Of a stretch of 47,420 bases of DNA, positions 33,048 through 42,149 are shown in pieces. This stretch comes from a virus: positions 1 to 47,420 of IMG/VR virus record IMGVR_UViG_3300049728_000011; one strand, given 5' to 3'. A model generated the notes under the pieces. That model had not been told where the DNA came from. It did not search any database and saw nothing but the letters and a program-made list of their open reading frames with translations. Position 1 is the stretch's first letter. Each line of letters starts with the position of its first letter. The position numbers and the translations under genes are program-made.

Positions 33048-34307
33048 TTACACCGTAATGGCGTTGACAGTGATATTCAGCGCGGGGCAAACGGGTTGCT
33101 GGTCAATTCCCATTGTCACAGATGCCCCGCTTGTCGGGCTCGCAGAGAAGCCGATGAAAATCGATACCGGGGTGATATTGCCGATAGCTTGTATTGGGGC
33201 AGCGTACTCGGCTGCGATGATTTGCCCCCCAATGCGCGCACGTGACACGTTGATGGACCCATCTGCCGCAGAGTAGCCATTGATGAATGCAGATGCAACG
33301 GCCTGTTGCACCTGCGTAATGTAGTTGCTCGGCAATGTTGTCAAGTTAGCTACATTAACCGTGATGTATACCTGCGTGGCTGGAGGTACAACGTAGCGCA
33401 CAACATAAGTAGGGTAGGGCGCGACGTAATTGACTGTATCCTGAATGGTTACGCTAGTGGTGCCTTGTGACGACATACCGCAGCCCGCATCCAGCTTACT
33501 GTGAATCGCCGCGGCCACCGCAACAGTAGTGCCGCCAGACGCGGCTACCATGATCGAATTGGCCGGTATAGGGTAATTAGTCGTGCCGTAAGTAATTGCA
33601 GACGTGCTGCCATTGTTGTACACATACACGTCGCTGACGTTCGCCACTGCCGCAACAGCGGCGCGCACGGATTCTGCTGAACCAGTGCCCCCAATTTGCA
33701 CGCTCTCTTGTCGCCGCGTTTCGAACGCTGCCCGGCCTTCTACGTCTTGACCGGGTGTGCTGCTAACGCTGTTAGACACGCCTTCCCAGCCTGCCGAGCG
33801 CTGATAAATAGTCAGGTCGTTGATGCCTGCTACCGGCGCACTGCCCGAAGTAGTCGCTTGAAACGTCACCGTAGCGGTGCCTGCCGATCCAAACACGACA
33901 GATGTCGTAGAGGCCCATATTGTGCCGTCTGACGATTTAACTTGCGCGCCCGCTGCGAGCGGTTGACCGACAACGCCGGTTACAGTGGCAGGTACGGTGG
34001 CGTAAGTCGCTCCGTTGCGCTTAAGAAGATAGATACGGCCTAGCGCATCCTGAAATGCCCCCGATGTGGTCAACGGGTCCACGTTAGCAATTAATTGCGC
34101 TAACGCTGCCTGAAAGTCGGCCACCATGTACGATTGCGAAGAGGAAAGCTGGCCCTGTGGTGTAGCGAGTGCGGAAGACAACGTCTTACCCGTCGCAGCC
34201 CAAGCAGCGACATAGTCGGCCAGAATGCCTGTCAGGATAGCCTGTTCGCTATACGTGAGCAGTCCGGCGCTAGTGAAGGTCGGTAAAGGTACGTTTGTTG
34301 TAGCCAT
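33048..34307 (-). CDS. Baseplate J-like protein
   Basis: 419 aa. The N-terminal LPTFTSAGL...ILTGILADY pattern and its position upstream of the DUF2612 and fibre genes fit the baseplate J family. Confidence 0.78.
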   Translation of the reverse strand: MATTNVPLPTFTSAGLLTYSEQAILTGILADYVAAWAATGKTLSSALATPQGQLSSSQSYMVADFQAALAQLIANVDPLTTSGAFQDALGRIYLLKRNGATYATVPATVTGVVGQPLAAGAQVKSSDGTIWASTTSVVFGSAGTATVTFQATTSGSAPVAGINDLTIYQRSAGWEGVSNSVSSTPGQDVEGRAAFETRRQESVQIGGTGSAESVRAAVAAVANVSDVYVYNNGSTSAITYGTTNYPIPANSIMVAASGGTTVAVAAAIHSKLDAGCGMSSQGTTSVTIQDTVNYVAPYPTYVVRYVVPPATQVYITVNVANLTTLPSNYITQVQQAVASAFINGYSAADGSINVSRARIGGQIIAAEYAAPIQAIGNITPVSIFIGFSASPTSGASVTMGIDQQPVCPALNITVNAITV

Positions 34308-34346: not shown

Positions 34347-34487
34347 TCAATTGTCAGGGCAGACAGTCTGTTTCATGTCGTACAAGTCGATCTTGATTTG
34401 CACATACTTAGCGAAGCCATCCGCGATGCTGGGCTGACCGTAAAACAACAACATGCCCAGCAGCACGACAATAAGCGCTTTGTACAT
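34347..34487 (-). CDS. Possible 46-aa secreted peptide
   Basis: My own translation gives MYKALIVVLLGMLLFYGQPSIADGFAKYVQIKIDLYDMKQTVCPDN, which has a signal-peptide-like N-terminus. The start overlaps the upstream stop as TAATG. Confidence 0.4.
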   Translation of the reverse strand: MYKALIVVLLGMLLFYGQPSIADGFAKYVQIKIDLYDMKQTVCPDN

Positions 34488-34852
34488 TATTTAAGCTCCT
34501 TGTATCTGCCGGTAATCCCATGCGCTGCCTCGATAGCGCGGAATAGATCAGCGAAACTAGACCCTAGCGTTTGGTCCCACGTTGCGTAAATGCTTGCAAT
34601 CTGCGCCTCGCTCAACGGCTCCCGCTTCACGCTGGCAATGGCCTGCTCTGCGTAGGCGCGCATTTGATCTGCAGTAAAAACAAACTCTGGAACGCAATCA
34701 ACTGCTTGATCTATTGCCATTTGAAATGCGAACTCGGCGCAACCATATTTGTCTTCAATTCCACGGGAATAAATTTCGCTGACGAGGCCTGAATTTTCTA
34801 GCTGAGGCCAATTTATTTCTATTGCCTCTGGCAATTCCGGTAACTTGCTCAT
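34487..34852 (-). CDS. Hypothetical protein (accessory island)
   Basis: 121-aa ORF, ATGA-coupled to the upstream gene. Confidence 0.65.
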   Translation of the reverse strand: MSKLPELPEAIEINWPQLENSGLVSEIYSRGIEDKYGCAEFAFQMAIDQAVDCVPEFVFTADQMRAYAEQAIASVKREPLSEAQIASIYATWDQTLGSSFADLFRAIEAAHGITGRYKELK

Positions 34853-35649
34853 GCTGACTCCTTTGCTGCGATAGCTGCGTCAATTGCTTCGCGTGCGGTC
34901 TTGTGCTCGTCAATCTGTACCCATACGTCCCAGCCGCCGCTATCGTTCAGGCAAGGATATTCAAGCCAGTAAAGTGTTGGATACTCGGCTTCATCTGGGT
35001 CGTAATCGTTACGTACAGATGCTTGCTTCTCGATCAAGAAATTCAGACGCTCGCTGTCCTTCGCATCTGCGGATGGCGGGGCGTTGTTTTCGGTCATTTC
35101 TGCATACCAAACGTTGTTACCGAACTCGCCAGTCAATCGAGCGAAGATTCTATGGCCAGCATCATCGTCGCCTGTGCTGACATCGACGCTGATTTGCTGC
35201 CCCTCTGGAGGCGCTACCGGCTCCGCACTTACAGACGCTGGTGGGGCGGTGTAGAGCGGCACCGGGTCTGCATCATAAGCAAGTGCCTGAGCGAAGCGCT
35301 CTGTATAGGCAGGGTGTTTCAGTCCATCTTTCGGTTTGTAGCGCCACGCTACCGGCTCCGCACTCCCCATAGCTGCGCGCTCAATAAACAGCATCAATGC
35401 CTCGGCCAGCGCTCCGGCACCGAGAGAATGATTGCCATCTACGCGCCTGATTTCCTGCGCCAGCGCATCAGCGTCTAGCGTGATCGCTGGCGTAGCTGCG
35501 CGCTTGGCGAGCAGATAACCTTGAAACACGTTTTCAGTGTCACGGTTTTTGTATGCCCCATAGCCACTATACTGCTCAAAGTTTGCGTTTTTATTCTGGA
35601 CTAGCGCTTCGAACTCGCGGCGCTCTTGTTCAATGTTCAGTTCTTTCAC
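34849..35649 (-). CDS. Hypothetical modular protein (accessory island)
   Basis: 266-aa ORF with EFEAL, PVAW and PLYTAPP modules, as seen in ead/nin-region proteins of lambdoid phages (from memory). Confidence 0.7.
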   Translation of the reverse strand: MKELNIEQERREFEALVQNKNANFEQYSGYGAYKNRDTENVFQGYLLAKRAATPAITLDADALAQEIRRVDGNHSLGAGALAEALMLFIERAAMGSAEPVAWRYKPKDGLKHPAYTERFAQALAYDADPVPLYTAPPASVSAEPVAPPEGQQISVDVSTGDDDAGHRIFARLTGEFGNNVWYAEMTENNAPPSADAKDSERLNFLIEKQASVRNDYDPDEAEYPTLYWLEYPCLNDSGGWDVWVQIDEHKTAREAIDAAIAAKESA

Positions 35650-36038
35650 GATTTCACCTCTTGCGATTGGAGGACTGCATTTATGCTTGCGCCTAGCATG
35701 AATGAAAGCTCACGCTCTTTCTCGTTAATGCCTTCGATTGTCGAGAGGAACCCTGCGCATGACTTCAATATCCCGCGTAACAGCGCCGCATCAGCCTTTG
35801 CCTGCTCAAGCTCTGCCAGCAGCTTGAGGATTGCGGCGGGGTTGGTGGCTGCGATGAAATTAGCGTTCTTTCGATTGTCATCGCGATTACCGTTACCGCG
35901 TATCTGAATTTCGATGCCGAGCCTGTCGTCGGTTTCTGGCGCGTAGACACGCGGCGAGTTGGCATGGTTGCTTTTCCTCCACGGCCCCGGTGTCGCAGCC
36001 TCTGCCAGCCGCTTCAGTTCTTTCAGATCGTCGCTCAT
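35646..36038 (-). CDS. Ead/Ea22-like protein
   Basis: Contains TPGPW...NANFIAATNPAAILKLLAELE, typical of the Ead/Ea22-like family. ATG 36038 (MSDDLKELK) overlaps the upstream stop as ATGA. The track start at 36086 is an extension. Confidence 0.65.
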   Translation of the reverse strand: MSDDLKELKRLAEAATPGPWRKSNHANSPRVYAPETDDRLGIEIQIRGNGNRDDNRKNANFIAATNPAAILKLLAELEQAKADAALLRGILKSCAGFLSTIEGINEKERELSFMLGASINAVLQSQEVKS

Positions 36039-36871
36039 TGGGTGCCGCCTTCCTTGCGCATACGACGATAGAAATGCTCGCAGCAAAAGCGCTTACCTCT
36101 CTTAGTCGCGCTGTTTTGGCTTGTTGTCAGCCCGAGTTCCATCATTATTTGAGTCAACGTATGACCGCAGTGATACCCGGCAATTCGTTTTAGAACACCC
36201 TCCGCAAGAAGAGTGCGGTAGTCATTAGTGCCAAAACTTGTGTTTTCAAAGGCGGCTGAAATTTGCTCCGTGCTCAGTTCGTATTGATTTTGTTTAGCCA
36301 TTGGCGCAACTGATGAAACACGTATCATCTGTAATTTTCCATCAGTATGGTTGGCATATGCGTACCGTAGAGCATCGCCGATTGTCGGTGTACCCCATGA
36401 TTTCGTTTTTTCTGATTTGCCAGTTGCGGTGTAGTTGGCATCATCCTCGCTTTTGAAAATTACGCCTTCCTCGCCATTTGGCGACAGCACTGCAAAGAAC
36501 TCAGGTTGCACTGCTACAGCTTGCGCATCGGCAGGAGTTGTTCCGTTCATCCGCTTAAAGCCAGCGTCAAGCAATGTCTTTTGAATCTTTGCGATTTGCT
36601 CGGCAGTAAATCTATTACTCGGCGCGACTGCTTGCGCATCAGCCTTTGCCTGCTCAAGCTCTGCGGATGGTGCGCGACGGTTCCACTGCTCAACTAATAG
36701 TTCTCGTTTATACCTGCTAGCGAATGAGGCTGTGCAGCCCAAACAGTCGATTGAATAAACGGTGTCGCTATGATGCAAATATCCAATTCCTGCGCCGGGA
36801 TGCGCAGCGAGTTTTACGTCTTCGCTACCGCAAAACGGGCAGGGCTTCAGTTCCTTCAGATCGTCGCTCAT
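36035..36871 (-). CDS. Protein with an N-terminal Lar-like zinc ribbon
   Basis: KPCPFCGS...CLGC...EQWNRRAP matches the Lar restriction-alleviation pattern. 278 aa with an unrelated C-terminal part. Confidence 0.7.
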   Translation of the reverse strand: MSDDLKELKPCPFCGSEDVKLAAHPGAGIGYLHHSDTVYSIDCLGCTASFASRYKRELLVEQWNRRAPSAELEQAKADAQAVAPSNRFTAEQIAKIQKTLLDAGFKRMNGTTPADAQAVAVQPEFFAVLSPNGEEGVIFKSEDDANYTATGKSEKTKSWGTPTIGDALRYAYANHTDGKLQMIRVSSVAPMAKQNQYELSTEQISAAFENTSFGTNDYRTLLAEGVLKRIAGYHCGHTLTQIMMELGLTTSQNSATKRGKRFCCEHFYRRMRKEGGTQ

Positions 36872-37038
36872 TACAACTTACCTCCACGTGCAAGCCGCTT
36901 TAGGATGCTGTAACGCTGCGACATAAGATCGGAAACATCACTCTTCCCGTTCTCAGCAAGCTCTTCATTCAACTCTCCATTTAGAGTGTCTAACCAAAGG
37001 TCTAGCGCCATTTCATCTGGCATCAGCTCGTCGCTCAT
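36871..37038 (-). CDS. Possible 55-aa acidic protein
   Basis: My own translation gives MSDELMPDEMALDLWLDTLNGELNEELAENGKSDVSDLMSQRYSILKRLARGGKL. It has an ATGA overlap upstream and a TAATG overlap downstream. Confidence 0.45.
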   Translation of the reverse strand: MSDELMPDEMALDLWLDTLNGELNEELAENGKSDVSDLMSQRYSILKRLARGGKL

Positions 37039-38279
37039 TTGCGCACCTCGGCTTTCAGGGCGCGGATGGGATCCGCTACATTTTGGCCGTCTGAATAGCG
37101 GCTTCGTTCTGCGGCTCTAGCTCCAACAATTGCCGCCTCTTCCAGCGCCGCATTGCGGATTGCTGTACTGTCGGCTGGGCGGGTGTAGAGCGTGCGGCGC
37201 TGGTCAACTGGCGTGCGGTCGTATTCAACTTTATCAACGTCAAACCAAAAATCGCGACGGCTAAATGACCTCTGCTGATACACAGCTTGCGCATCGGCCT
37301 GCGCTGGCTCCTGCGGTGCGACTGCGATCTGCATTGTTGTCATGTCATCCAGTAATATTAACAGTTGTGGGCCGTCTACAAGAACTTCCCCGTTGTAGAT
37401 ACCAGCTTTGTAAGCTGCGTTGGCAATAGCTTGCATAAGCGCCTTTACCTGCGTAATTAACTCAGTAAGTGTTCGGTTTCTAGGCTCGACGTTTAAAACT
37501 ATGTCCAGCTCTTCAAGCCTTGACGAGTCGATGCAAACGTGTGGAGTGCCATGATGCGGACAGCCTTCGTCTTCGCATAATTCAGGTTCCCGCGTGTTTT
37601 GTGAAGCGGCGAGAATGGCTCGGGCGAAAATGTTAACCTCGTCGCCTACATCCTTTGCCTCGATTATGGATGCATTCCAGATTGCGCTAATCTGCTCATC
37701 CGTCAGCACCTGCGGCGTCAACTGCACTGCGGCGTAAACACCCTCCAAAGCGTTAGCCCATTCGAACATTTTGGACTTTGAAATCTCAACATGATCCGCC
37801 CACATCGGGTCTTCAGAGATGCCACGCAATTCGACGGCCACACGGTTGATAACGTCATCTGCGACAGGTCCGGCAATTGTTTTCTCTGACTCCTGCGTTT
37901 TCGTCTGGCTTTTCCGTTTGTTGCAATTATTGCAGCGACGTTCACTTACCTGATCCCCGAAGTAATGGAAATCGTGAGTGCATGTTTGCGCTGGCTCTCG
38001 TAATATGTCGGCATCTTTGAGCTCAGCCAAAGCCGCCGTTTGCTTTTGATGCCAATCATAGAAGTCTTGCATTGCATACAGTGCGTATGACTCCGCGCTA
38101 TCTTCGTCCGCGAAGTCCATACCGATGTAGTTGCGAATGATGTCCTTCATCTTCATTTCAGGCGGCATCGGAACCTTGCCAATCAGAACGCGCTCACCAT
38201 TTGGCTTCTCGCCAAGCGCGTCGATCATTTCGGGGAAATTTTCATCAGCCATGTCATACGTTTGTTCTTTGTTTGTCAT
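37035..38279 (-). CDS. Large modular hypothetical protein (accessory island)
   Basis: 414-aa ORF with Cys/His clusters CNNCNKRK and CEDEGCPHHGTPHVC, plus LTDEQI and LYTRP modules. Confidence 0.75.
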   Translation of the reverse strand: MTNKEQTYDMADENFPEMIDALGEKPNGERVLIGKVPMPPEMKMKDIIRNYIGMDFADEDSAESYALYAMQDFYDWHQKQTAALAELKDADILREPAQTCTHDFHYFGDQVSERRCNNCNKRKSQTKTQESEKTIAGPVADDVINRVAVELRGISEDPMWADHVEISKSKMFEWANALEGVYAAVQLTPQVLTDEQISAIWNASIIEAKDVGDEVNIFARAILAASQNTREPELCEDEGCPHHGTPHVCIDSSRLEELDIVLNVEPRNRTLTELITQVKALMQAIANAAYKAGIYNGEVLVDGPQLLILLDDMTTMQIAVAPQEPAQADAQAVYQQRSFSRRDFWFDVDKVEYDRTPVDQRRTLYTRPADSTAIRNAALEEAAIVGARAAERSRYSDGQNVADPIRALKAEVRK

Positions 38280-38302
38280 TATTTACTCCTGATGTTGGTC
38301 GA

Positions 38303-38632
38303 TCAAAACGGGCAATCGCCCTTTACTGGTGCAGCCACTTCGAACGGCATGTCGCTATCTTTCACGCCTTGCCGCTTCAACTGGTTGTACGGCCCTCGCG
38401 GGTTGTTGTCGCAGAACGGGTGCGTGGTGCGATGCGGATACGTGCCGTCTTTTCCCACTACGTTGCGGCAATAACACAAACCCCGTCGATTGTATTCCCG
38501 GCCTTCTAGTCGCCACCCCGATACTGTGTTGCACACTTCGCACGCTGGTGGCCTGACGTATTCGTCGGGGTGCCGTTTACTGACTCGGCGATGGCGACAT
38601 GCGCTATTTTTGCAGCGCACTGAGTAGGTCAT
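38303..38632 (-). CDS. Cys/His-rich zinc-binding protein candidate
   Basis: 109 aa with the motifs CKNSAC, CEVC, CYC and YPHRTTHPFC. It is ATGA-coupled to the upstream P-loop ORF. Confidence 0.7.
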   Translation of the reverse strand: MTYSVRCKNSACRHRRVSKRHPDEYVRPPACEVCNTVSGWRLEGREYNRRGLCYCRNVVGKDGTYPHRTTHPFCDNNPRGPYNQLKRQGVKDSDMPFEVAAPVKGDCPF

Positions 38633-38874
38633 GACTGCTGCCGCACACCCTTAATAGCAACCGCGTGATCGACTGCGTGAAGGGGATACTTTCGCAAGAC
38701 TTTGGGGTCATTCGTTAAATACAATATCCCCGCATCGGGTTCAAATTTGAAACCTGATGCGTGAAAGAGGTCATCATCACATACCTGCTCACAATCATAA
38801 GCAACCATTAGCGCCTCTGCGTTACGCGTCTTGCCGCAACCTTGCGGGCCGTACACTATTACGGATTTTTTCAT
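38629..38874 (-). CDS. Minimal (81-aa) P-loop NTPase-like protein
   Basis: Walker A GPQGCGKT at residues 9-16, and a possible Walker B VCDDD. It is the first ORF of the island, downstream of the structured leader. Confidence 0.7.
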   Translation of the reverse strand: MKKSVIVYGPQGCGKTRNAEALMVAYDCEQVCDDDLFHASGFKFEPDAGILYLTNDPKVLRKYPLHAVDHAVAIKGVRQQS

Positions 38875-39185
38875 TTGCGACTCCTGTTAGGTTTGGTGTT
38901 GGTGCAACTACAGGACGACATTCCTTTAGACCCCGTGCGGAAGAACTGCGATGAGTGCGCACGGGTTTGCGCAGTTTGCAACTTCATAGTTGCACCAACA
39001 TAGAAGCGGGCCGGGCTTGATTCCGGCTAGTGCGGGACAGCCTCTCGGGTCTAGGACCGTTCCCGCGACATGGCAGACGAGGCGCGCCTCTGCCATTCCC
39101 ACTTAGGTCTGCGTGTCCTTCCACGCCGCCGCTTCTATGTTGGCCCTGCGCTCTCTTACCCGGCGCAGGTTTAGGTGGTACTAAC
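38875..39185. ncRNA. Unclassified highly structured GC-rich non-coding segment (leader or ncRNA candidate; strand unresolved)
   Basis: The perfect complementary pairs are 38897-38910 with 38987-39000 (14 bp), 38995-39009 with 39129-39143 (15 bp) and 38932-38939 with 38958-38965 (8 bp), plus five local hairpins. No credible ORF is present. Confidence 0.4.
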
Positions 39186-39242
39186 GTGCTTGACAAAGAA
39201 TTTAAGCGTATCTTACGATAACTTAAATTCTTTGTCAAGCAC
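39186..39242. repeat. Perfect 21-bp inverted repeat with a 15-nt spacer
   Basis: GTGCTTGACAAAGAATTTAAG (39186-39206) pairs with CTTAAATTCTTTGTCAAGCAC (39222-39242). TTTT follows on the plus strand. Confidence 0.9.
39210..39238 (-). promoter_or_regulatory. Sigma70-type promoter TTGACA-17-TAAGAT embedded in the 21-bp inverted repeat
   Basis: On the minus strand the -35 is at 39233-39238 and the -10 at 39210-39215. It points into the structured leader and the accessory island. Confidence 0.5.
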
Positions 39243-39244
39243 TT

Positions 39245-40033
39245 TTAACCGGTCATGTTGCCGGTGTTACCCGAACCGGTTTGTACGCCGCCGTGGATAT
39301 GATTGTTCACGCTGCCATTTGGCACGATGACGTCTGGCGCAGTGATCGGGCTAGCAAACGTGAAGTTGCCCGAACCCGTCGCAGTGCCGCTTACTGACTT
39401 ACTAAACACGGTCGGGGCGTTGACAACTAACTGTGACGCGTTGACCGTTGTTGTACTTGCCGACGTGGTGGCGATTGTCGATCCGGCCTGCAACGTCAGT
39501 GAACCCCCCGCATTGAGCGCAATGTTGCCTGTCGCGTTCAGGTTGATATTGCCCGGCGAGACAATGTTAATACCTGCCGCGCTAGCAAGAAACTGAACGT
39601 ACTGTGTCGGTGCGCCGTTCAAGAAGCCGCCGAGGTACAGTCCGTCAGCGGTGCTGAATACGCGGTCGGTGGACGCCGGGCTAGGCTGCAACGTGCTCTT
39701 GATCGTGGTGATGTCTTTCTGCGCGTACAGTGCTACGCCGATGTCCCCGACCACTGGGTCTAAGATGATCGCAGATACGCCACCCTGCATGCGCATGTAG
39801 GGCACGTTGTATGCTGGGCTTTGATCGAGCACGATGCTGTTCGTGTCTACGTCCAGAACCATTGGCTGCACAGTGACAAACCCGACACGATCCGATACCG
39901 GATTGACTGCCTGCACATGTACCAGTTCTGCGGTGTTGATCGTGCCGCGCAGCAACGACAAGATGACGTATTCTTGTGAACGGTCCTCATCAAACTGCGA
40001 TTCGAACGAGAAACTAAATGGGGTGTTGCTCAC
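39245..40033 (-). CDS. Baseplate central spike / gpV (gp138 N-terminal-like) protein
   Basis: The N-terminal pattern LLRGTINTAELVHVQAV...PYMRMQGG...PVVGDIG resembles Mu gp45 / P2 V-type spike proteins. Confidence 0.72.
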   Translation of the reverse strand: MSNTPFSFSFESQFDEDRSQEYVILSLLRGTINTAELVHVQAVNPVSDRVGFVTVQPMVLDVDTNSIVLDQSPAYNVPYMRMQGGVSAIILDPVVGDIGVALYAQKDITTIKSTLQPSPASTDRVFSTADGLYLGGFLNGAPTQYVQFLASAAGINIVSPGNINLNATGNIALNAGGSLTLQAGSTIATTSASTTTVNASQLVVNAPTVFSKSVSGTATGSGNFTFASPITAPDVIVPNGSVNNHIHGGVQTGSGNTGNMTG

Positions 40034-41423: not shown

Positions 41424-41513
41424 TCAGCCCAGTTTAACCGCTAGCCACGACAGGAGCAAATAGCCGAAAAGCGCTAATGTCAGGTCAGACATGCCTTGTA
41501 AGAACTTCTTCAT
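41424..41513 (-). CDS. Possible 29-aa hydrophobic peptide
   Basis: My own translation gives MKKFLQGMSDLTLALFGYLLLSWLAVKLG. It has a TAATG overlap with the upstream stop and ends 2 nt before the next ATG. Confidence 0.3.
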   Translation of the reverse strand: MKKFLQGMSDLTLALFGYLLLSWLAVKLG

Positions 41514-41794
41514 TATTCAACCCCCGGTTGATCGAGCATCCAATTGATCCAAGCAAGGCGGATCAGCCTACGCTGGCGCTTCGGTCCCGCCCAAAGCGCG
41601 AATGTGTTGCACTCCCAGATTGCGGCGTGCTCTTTAATTCGGAAAGCGGCGTCATGGTACTCAATATCGCTGTAAGGCACGGCCTGACGCTCAACAACTT
41701 GTGCAAGTACGAAAGAAACGGGGCGATCATCGCCGCTTTCGATCAGTTCTCTCGCAGCAACTAGCAACTCTCGCTCAACCTTATTCAGTGCCAT
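41513..41794 (-). CDS. Hypothetical protein, tandem paralogue 2
   Basis: Starts MALNKVERELLVAARELIESG and ends WINWMLDQP. It is a paralogue of 41800-42087. The track start at 41839 is an extension. Confidence 0.65.
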   Translation of the reverse strand: MALNKVERELLVAARELIESGDDRPVSFVLAQVVERQAVPYSDIEYHDAAFRIKEHAAIWECNTFALWAGPKRQRRLIRLAWINWMLDQPGVE

Positions 41795-41799
41795 GACAT

Positions 41800-42087
41800 T
41801 CACTCCATCTCTGGTTGATCGAGCATCCAATCTATCCAAGCCAGACGGTCTTGCTTGACACCACGTTGAGCATCATAACCATTTGCGCGCTGCCAGCTGT
41901 CGAGTGCTATATGCGGCGCTAGCGCTTTGCTAATATAGCGTTCGAGGCGCTTCGCTGCATCCATGTAGTAATATCTGCGACGACTGGTAGCGTTCTGTAT
42001 TGCGTGGCAAATGTAGAATTCTTCACCGCTTTCGATCAGTTCTCTCGCAGCAACTAGCAACTCCCGCTCAATCTTATTCAACGCCAT
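41800..42087 (-). CDS. Hypothetical protein, tandem paralogue 1
   Basis: Starts MALNKIERELLVAARELIESG and ends WIDWMLDQP. The track start at 42144 is an extension. Confidence 0.65.
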   Translation of the reverse strand: MALNKIERELLVAARELIESGEEFYICHAIQNATSRRRYYYMDAAKRLERYISKALAPHIALDSWQRANGYDAQRGVKQDRLAWIDWMLDQPEME

Positions 42088-42149
42088 AACGTTCTCCTGT
42101 TGTAAGTGTGTAGCTATCTTACGAAAACGTAACGGCAATGTCAAGCTAT

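Follow-up and report, generated by a model that had tools for sequence, protein, structure and literature searches.

The DNA analyzed here (the window; 47,420 nt, IMG/VR record IMGVR_UViG_3300049728_000011) is the ~47-kb genome of a myovirus of the Bcep781/Naesvirus type, an uncultured soil phage. In this genome, an accessory island that includes a Lar-like restriction-alleviation protein lies between the baseplate J gene and the spike gene. The subject of this report is the element at the spike-proximal border of the island, inside the late tail operon (38875-39185), which probably yields a structured RNA, made on the minus strand from an internal promoter. In every variant, the RNA is followed by zn109, the gene of a double zinc-ribbon protein. 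Read in the direction of transcription, the module begins with the promoter and a 5' block of 46 invariant nt that contains hairpin P1. Helix P2 comes next, followed by a 3' domain that the long-range helix I4 closes and by the zn109 AUG (Table 1).

Detection of long competing complementarities

A sequence-only reading of the window had described the segment as GC-rich and noncoding, with two long helices that exclude each other in the manner of a switch. The GC content was raised only mildly (0.57-0.59 vs about 0.49-0.55 in the surroundings). The complementarities were found exactly where that reading had placed them. The longest perfect inverted repeats of the segment were the arms of P2 (15 nt, 100%) and those of I4 (14 nt, 100%), which overlap at 38995-39000, and two further repeats had arms of 8 nt each (38932-38939/38958-38965, the stem of hairpin P4, and 39070-39077/39089-39096). 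When 38875-39185 was shuffled 1000 times with its dinucleotide composition preserved, no perfect inverted repeat was longer than 11 nt, and 9 nt was the upper limit for the second longest. RNAfold gave z-scores of -7.3 and -8.1 on the two strands and reproduced on both the hairpins that had been proposed at 39010-39027, 39032-39066, 39070-39096, 39111-39126, and 39145-39169.

Distribution of the element among relatives

The homologue search by BLASTN that the sequence-only reading had recommended returned no nucleotide match to the element region in isolate phages or Escherichia coli genomes. Relatives were retrieved by protein anchors. The close relatives shared 94-95% spike identity with the window, and two more (L008 and L107) shared 67%. 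Five distinct versions of the element were obtained: that of the window, that of L007, the L006 type (L003, L004, L006, L090, and L104), that of L102 and L103, and the diverged version of L107. Below, "four close variants" refers to the window, L007, the L006 type, and L102, while L107 is the distant variant. By comparison with L008, which lacked the whole module and whose zinc-ribbon gene started 4 nt after the spike stop codon, the element is a discrete insertion, 230-330 nt long, that separates the spike gene from zn109. Its distribution was narrow, being confined to one clade of uncultured Bcep781-like phages from metagenome assemblies.

The paired-arm pattern with a spacing of 40-70 nt matched nothing in 185,579 species genomes and only the known relatives when run on the retrieved loci alone, and patterns with a spacing of 71-132 nt matched nothing in IMG/VR contigs. 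A covariance model built for the 3' domain (R1) revealed no additional copies in 79 distant Bcep781-like loci, although the same model overlooked L107, a true distant homologue.

Conservation of the promoter and the 5' block

The minus-strand promoter TTGACA-17-TAAGAT proposed earlier was recovered by a promoter scan, and transcription is predicted to start near 39203. The promoter was identical or differed by one spacer base in the four close variants and read TTGACA-17-TAAGCT in L107; it was thus conserved in 5/5 variants. After a short variable initial transcribed stretch, the 46-nt block began, and the boundaries of conservation of the promoter and this block were sharp. Within the block, every pair of the four close variants showed 0/46 differences, compared with 6-13% in the flanking coding DNA. 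P1 was retained even in L107, with one G-C pair changed to G.U. Over the scaffold, the window differed from relatives at 2/167 and 8/167 positions, while the flanking genes diverged by ~10% overall and by ~25% at third codon positions.

Selection on both helices and strand of the RNA

The hexamer UGUUGG (39000-38995) is contested by P2 and I4, and the underlying arrangement CCAAC ... GUUGG ... CCAAC was retained even in L107. The outer 8 bp of P2 were conserved; farther in, pair 7 was U-A, U.G, or C-G and pair 8 changed from A-U to G-C across the variants. In I4 of L107, pairs 8-11 carried double compensatory changes, with GUUGGUCGUU pairing with AACGACCAAC. Since compensatory change maintains both pairings, the mutually exclusive helices have real support, and selection acts on both. 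This bears out the first half of the earlier proposal; the second half, that the two helices work as a switch or attenuator, is taken up below.

The remaining variation followed the fold. Among the four close variants, 12 columns of the 3' scaffold were variable, of which 8 lay in the terminal loops of P4 and P5 (6 and 2 positions, respectively), 4 in stems, and none in junctions. The stems of P4 and P5 were invariant, and all 4 variable stem columns were G.U compatible. The independent one-sided stem changes (P1 pair 4; P2 pair 7; I4 pairs 6, 8, and 11) all (5/5) produced G.U when read as minus-strand RNA but A.C when read as the plus strand, and this identifies the minus strand as the RNA.

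Constrained folding gave two conformers. In conformer A, full P2 and the small hairpin P3 form and the 3' segment is free; in conformer B, the inner part of P2 is combined with I4, which encloses P4 and P5. The energy gap between A and B was 1.4-2.7 kcal/mol in the four close variants. The sequence after I4 was CUUUAAUAAU, CAAACC, or UUCAAAC, depending on the variant, and in the relatives the zn109 AUG, which has no Shine-Dalgarno sequence, began 10-12 nt after the I4 3' arm. No minus-strand terminator was found by a scan of 38200-39700.

As the sequence-only reading had held, the segment contains no credible open reading frame (ORF). None was common to the variants, and the tip replacements described below altered both length and frame. 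A 38-amino-acid (aa) ORF lies in the 3' domain (38871-38987, minus strand); in the window and in the L006 type, its TGA and the ATG of the following gene overlap. The in-frame TAA that L007 and L102 have in the P4 loop led to its rejection as a coupling leader peptide. A further observation concerns the P1 loop (39162-39158, CGGGU), which is complementary to 38967-38963 (ACCCG) at the boundary of J3/4 and P4 in the window clade and in L107. This 5-nt complementarity could be a pseudoknot, a tertiary contact, or chance.

Lineage-specific replacement of the P2 tip

The sequence-only reading had described a multibranch domain of four hairpins (39010-39128) closed by the second helix. Judged against the relatives, this domain is no conserved functional core but the nonconserved tip of P2, which was replaced in every lineage. 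The tip measured 119 nt in the window, 53 nt in L007, 60 nt in the L006 type, ~83 nt in L102, and ~48 nt in L107, and the sequences were unrelated. Each tip extended P2 and folded independently, with a z-score of about -5 each. In L102, the replacement reached into the inner P2 arms, where pairing was largely restored with other bases. Point mutation is not the cause, because a divergence of ~10-25% cannot yield unrelated tips of 48-119 nt. Recombination within the invariant flanks can transfer tips between phages.

The tips had no match on either strand in the window or in 107 related loci (~740 kb), and no antisense or guide complementarity beyond chance was detected in the same DNA. They shared no common motif and matched no Rfam family.

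Table 1. Positions of the RNA module, its neighboring genes, and other features of the window
Feature	Position	Strand	Description
Promoter	39210-39238	minus	sigma-70 type; TTGACA (39238-39233), 17 nt, TAAGAT (39215-39210); promoter scan
Invariant 46-nt 5' block	39138-39183	minus	UAGUACCACCUAAA, hairpin P1, and G followed by the first part of the P2 5' arm
Hairpin P1	39169-39163 paired with 39151-39145	minus	
P2 5' arm	39129-39143	minus	CCAACAUAGAAGCGG; inverted-repeat search
P2 tip (apex)	39010-39128	minus	119 nt with four hairpins
P2 3' arm	38995-39009	minus	CCGCUUCUAUGUUGG; last 6 nt (39000-38995) common to the I4 5' arm
I4 5' arm	38987-39000	minus	UGUUGGUGCAACUA
Hairpin P3	38994-38989 with 38982-38977	minus	small; alternative pairing of I4 5' arm residues
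Junction J3/4	38976-38966	minus	
Hairpin P4	38932-38965 (38965-38958 with 38939-38932)	minus	8-bp stem CCCGUGCG/CGCACGGG, 18-nt loop
Junction J4/5	38931-38926	minus	
Hairpin P5	38912-38925	minus	AGGA-AUGUCG-UCCU
I4 3' arm	38897-38910	minus	UAGUUGCACCAACA
P-loop ORF	38629-38874	minus	81 aa; own AGGAG (38885-38881); stop overlaps zn109 start (ATGA)
zn109	38303-38632	minus	109-aa double zinc-ribbon protein; follows the RNA in every variant
Accessory island	34487-38874		between baseplate J and spike; includes Lar-like restriction-alleviation protein
Baseplate J	33048-34307		
Spike protein	39245-40033	minus	GpV apex motif; 44-52% identical to baseplate proteins of Bcep781, Ralstonia, and Xanthomonas phages
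Palindrome	39183-39245		24 bp (24 nt, 96% complementary); encloses the promoter, centered on the -10; window only
Second promoter	42116-42144	minus	TTGACA-17-TAAGAT; same TCGTAAGATA -10 context; precedes another small accessory gene

A window-specific palindrome around the promoter

In the window, the promoter is enclosed by a 24-bp palindrome, which reads on the plus strand as a hairpin followed by TTTT. The sequence-only reading had considered it the end of a plus-strand RNA (39186-39246). This was not supported, as all relatives lacked the second palindrome arm and had unrelated sequence in its place; only a 5-bp seed (TTAAG/CTTAA) was common. The palindrome is therefore outside the conserved element. 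Its relation to the seed suggests a quasipalindrome extended by template switching. The full hairpin would occur in read-through late transcripts only.

Genes downstream of the RNA

The sequence-only reading had named the ORF starting at 38874 as the first gene of the island. This 81-aa ORF carries a Walker A motif (GPQGCGKT), gave only weak AAA/RFC Walker A matches and a match to phrog_14685 (function unknown), had no IMG/VR match by tblastn, and was absent in all relatives. On this comparison, the window alone has this ORF inserted between the RNA and zn109, and the conserved downstream partner is zn109.

Members of the zn109 family are about 105-117 aa long, with two conserved Cys/His clusters and an acidic C terminus often ending in PF; the tail often reads ...D(D/E)IP.E...PF, resembling the C-terminal tails of single-stranded-DNA (ssDNA)-binding proteins (SSBs). 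Homologues (P0001-P0026) with 52-61% identity occurred in many metagenomic phages, where they usually lay between the SSB and DNA polymerase A genes; neighbors in other uncultured phages were a DUF2800/PD-(D/E)XK nuclease, an Enc34-type ssDNA-binding protein, and DNA polymerase A. These neighbors suggest a replication-associated, nonlate gene. No Pfam, NCBIfam, or PDB sequence match was obtained for zn109, nor was a homologue found in 50,697 isolate phage genomes. Its AlphaFold model had a pLDDT of 77, and the best Foldseek matches were nonsignificant ones to the MCM zinc ribbon. The zn109 homologues were not generally paired with structured upstream RNAs, and most adjoined the preceding gene directly.

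The island behind zn109 (34487-38279) is hyperplastic. It holds six genes in the window, including those of a 414-aa protein and the Lar-like protein of 278 aa. In L090 and L104 it contains different genes, among them one for a helix-turn-helix protein, and in L102 it is almost empty.

A model for the structured leader

We tentatively favor the explanation that the RNA is a cis-acting bistable leader that would control the translation (or processing) of zn109 and the island, a reading that we hold with slightly more doubt than belief. The internal promoter, located just after the spike gene, would transcribe a leader of ~300 nt into zn109 and the accessory island. In conformer A, UGUUGG would complete P2 with CCAACA at 39143-39138, leaving the region before the next start codon single-stranded. 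In conformer B, it would instead pair with CCAACA at 38902-38897 within an I4 of 14-16 bp, leaving 10-12 nt between this helix and the zn109 AUG. How efficiently translation of the first downstream gene starts would depend on the balance of the two conformers, which might also affect the processing or stability of the mRNA. A replication-type gene inside the late tail operon could thereby be expressed and tuned independently, and for such a gene an internal sigma-70-type promoter with a regulatory leader would be sensible. The P2 tip would stand outside the core of this mechanism, needing only to be a compact fold, and could be exchanged by recombination in the conserved flanks. We infer the regulatory output, the ON/OFF assignment of the conformers, and the trigger.

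Several observations weigh against this model. Neither helix directly covers a Shine-Dalgarno sequence or an AUG and there is no terminator U-tract, so the expression platform is not evident. Since no terminator, Shine-Dalgarno-sequestering platform, or ligand pocket was identified, we infer a "switch/attenuator" from the anatomy. Near-isoenergetic bistability does not extend to L107, where A was favored over B by 8.4 kcal/mol. In the window itself, the P-loop ORF with its own AGGAG intervenes and weakens direct control of zn109. The module is also dispensable, because L008, with 67% spike identity, joins the spike gene and zn109 directly. In addition, a purely cis-regulatory role does not account for wholesale tip replacement. 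Finally, the comparative set consists of five sequence variants, four of them very close. The sequence-only reading had asked for covariation, and compensatory changes were present in both helices, the evidence coming from L107, but the formal shuffle statistics on four sequences were not significant. With so few sequences, the argument for a functional RNA rests on the pattern of changes and not on a P value.

Alternative explanations

One alternative, which we consider rather unlikely, is a processed stand-alone noncoding RNA. Here, the conserved P1, P2 base, and 3' domain would be a scaffold and processing signal (the long stems could, e.g., be cleaved by RNase III or in an RNase P-type reaction), and the tip would be a payload (a decoy, sponge, or specificity module) under diversifying selection and swapped as a cassette. 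Every lineage indeed has a different, independently well-folded tip between invariant flanks, which neutral drift at the observed divergence cannot yield, and the module, which L107 has and L008 lacks, is inserted as a discrete unit that includes its own promoter. However, the tips lacked target complementarity in the window and in the ~740 kb of related loci, as well as a common motif and an Rfam match, and the RNA has no terminator or defined 3' end. Moreover, the strongest conservation lies in the scaffold and the competing helices by the start codon, not in the tip. A variant that unites both ideas is improbable. In it, a toggling promoter-driven scaffold would present a tip that related phages exchange by recombination in the invariant flanks and that would act in trans, perhaps by inhibiting a host defense or RNA-binding factor or by serving as its decoy; if true, it would be an RNA analogue of the neighboring protein-coding anti-defense accessory islands. 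A role in mRNA processing or stability alone seems unlikely to us. The stems would then be entry or protection sites for RNase III/E, either separating the accessory genes from the late tail transcript or stabilizing the promoter-derived mRNA 5' end, and the helices would be no switch. The position within the late operon at the junction with nonstructural genes, the long perfect stems of 15 bp (up to 18-19 bp in L006 and L007), and the extra 24-bp perfect hairpin of the window in read-through transcripts are consistent with this role, which leaves unexplained why both mutually exclusive pairings are kept by compensatory change and why the junctions and P1 are invariant.

The remaining explanations dispense with a functional minus-strand RNA. 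Inverted repeats may act at the DNA level only, as hot spots of recombination and template switching, with a functionless RNA fold. The hyperplastic downstream island, the resemblance of the window palindrome to a template-switch product of its seed, and the concentration of tip replacement and P-loop gene insertion at exactly this site speak for frequent rearrangement, and the stem-loops of PeSL cassettes mediate such shuffling in T4-like phages (PMC4122927). DNA hairpins, however, would not favor G.U changes on one strand only, as seen in all five one-sided stem changes, nor do they explain compensatory changes in both helices combined with variable loops and invariant junctions. The arms are, besides, single copy and absent from the 185,579 species genomes and IMG/VR, unlike dispersed PeSL repeats. 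We consider a purely DNA-level role about as improbable as the trans-acting tip. Least credible, and very improbable, are the readings in which the segment either gives a plus-strand RNA that stops at the hairpin-TTTT or encodes a small protein. Folding is equally stable on the plus strand and the hairpin with U4 is present in the window, but this terminator-like hairpin is unique to the window, the scan found no plus-strand promoter upstream, and six alignment cells turn into A.C mismatches on the plus strand. For a small protein, the ATGA overlap of the 38-aa ORF in the window and the L006 type is offset by the in-frame TAA in L007 and L102, and the tip replacements destroy the other ORFs.

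Comparison with known RNA classes and mobile elements

The sequence-only reading could not assign the segment to any noncoding RNA class, and the searches agreed with it. Rfam 15 (4227 models) was searched with the whole window at gathering thresholds, which gave 0 matches, and permissively with the window, L006, L007, and L092, which gave microRNA-like hairpin noise and a 24-bit match to the DUF3268 RNA (RF02966). The latter shares with the element the outline of a ~10-bp closing helix around three hairpins, and a DUF3268-domain gene follows the zn109 homologue in one unrelated contig. The assignment was rejected, because the match scored 24.3 bits against a gathering score of 65.3, occurred in L006 only and on the opposite strand, lacked the conserved CAGGCUUUCG block, and contained many noncanonical pairs. 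ARAGORN found no tRNA or tmRNA in the window or the loci of the relatives. By these searches, the element appears to lie outside every catalogued RNA family and to constitute a new RNA family of narrow distribution. Its features agree with those of a generic structured cis-regulatory leader, as it is a noncoding segment between a promoter and a start codon, on the coding strand, with helices that show compensatory or wobble support. A structured leader with alternative helices is a known kind; the cassette-like replacement of the tip between invariant flanks is the unusual part.

Autoregulated translational operators occur in the leaders of replication genes, such as the T4 gene 32 pseudoknot and the T4/RB69 gene 43 hairpin operator. 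Like these, the element is a structured leader directly 5' of a putative replication-module gene and near the translation start region. It shares no sequence or structure homology with them, and unlike them it is transcribed from its own promoter within a tail operon, contains two long helices in competition, and carries a hypervariable tip. Leader-embedded immunity RNAs, namely, the P4 CI RNA (seqA/seqB/seqC) and the P1/P7 c4 antisense RNA, offer a second parallel. They too are promoter-proximal RNAs on the same transcript as the following genes, with a central segment complementary to both sides and long closing stems suggestive of processing. In contrast to them, the element has no Rfam C4 match, its complementarities overlap by 6 nt only and do not repeat one sequence, and they leave the ribosome-binding site uncovered. 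Pfam scans of 38 window proteins, eight of which were also compared with NCBIfam, revealed no lysogeny or immunity genes.

With attenuators and riboswitch platforms, the element shares mutually exclusive 5' leader helices and nearly isoenergetic alternative folds, but it lacks a U-tract terminator, Shine-Dalgarno sequestration, and a recognizable aptamer, and its largest subdomain is hypervariable. An intrinsic-terminator attenuator was rejected, as no alternative helix is a GC-rich hairpin with a U-tract. Rfam yielded no match to a known riboswitch aptamer; the invariant P1 and junctions could still bind something.

Mobile and recombining elements were also considered. The inverted repeats recall a retron msr-msd, which was rejected for want of a reverse transcriptase (RT) and a conserved msr. 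No RT domain was found in the 38 scanned window proteins, which include all genes around the element, and there is no conserved msr because everything inside the inverted repeats is replaced by unrelated sequence in each relative. Integron attC sites consist of R''/R' cores (RYYYAAC/GTTRRRY), an unpaired central spacer, and extrahelical bases and are acted on by the integron integrase. Here, the core CCAAC/GTTGG fits only 5/7 positions, the stem is perfect without conserved bulges, and no tyrosine recombinase was found in the scans; integron cassette exchange fails as well, since both flanks are constant and the tip alone changes. A miniature inverted-repeat transposable element or other dispersed repeat was rejected because the arms are single copy in the window and the paired-arm patterns revealed no dispersed copies in the species genomes or in IMG/VR contigs. 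PeSLs, which mediate shuffling in T4-like phages (PMC4122927), combine promoter and terminator in one stem-loop motif; they are short repeats with many copies per genome and act via DNA recombination (PMC4122927, PMC2839356). The likeness lies in a promoter and stem-loop bordering a hyperplastic accessory region, with insertions, deletions, and replacements at the site of the element. In contrast to PeSLs, the element is present in one copy and is an RNA of ~300 nt that shows covariation; its promoter palindrome occurs in the window only. As a PeSL cassette it was rejected on these grounds: the promoter sequence is single copy in the window, the second promoter has no stem-loop, and the palindrome is window specific.

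Significance of the element

If confirmed, the element would be a new phage RNA family in which two alternative helices are both evolutionarily maintained beside an AUG without a ribosome-binding sequence, and its internal promoter would free a replication-type gene from the late tail operon. Bistable RNA control in phages could then also be studied in a compact natural setting. The lineage-by-lineage replacement of the tip between invariant flanks is an unusual, testable case of cassette-like exchange in a noncoding RNA. Because the distribution is narrow, the immediate impact is modest.

Other elements in the window and in related loci

The second promoter of the window lies just after the tape-measure/lysozyme gene (42144-42116), and its leader is short and unstructured, without a stem-loop. 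The genes behind it (41800-42086 and 41513-41839, minus strand) are small paralogues (MALNK(I/V)ERELLVAAREL...). They are another accessory insertion with its own promoter within the tail module.

A different structured element precedes a zn109 homologue in an unrelated 74-kb contig (L092:2190-2330; the same in L093:830-970). Model R1 gave it 31 bits, which looks like generic shape likeness without homology, and neither Rfam nor ARAGORN gave a match. It lies directly after a terminator-like hairpin and has a closing helix of ~22 bp around four hairpins, one of which has a perfect tRNA T-arm sequence (UGUGG-UUCGAAU-CCACG).

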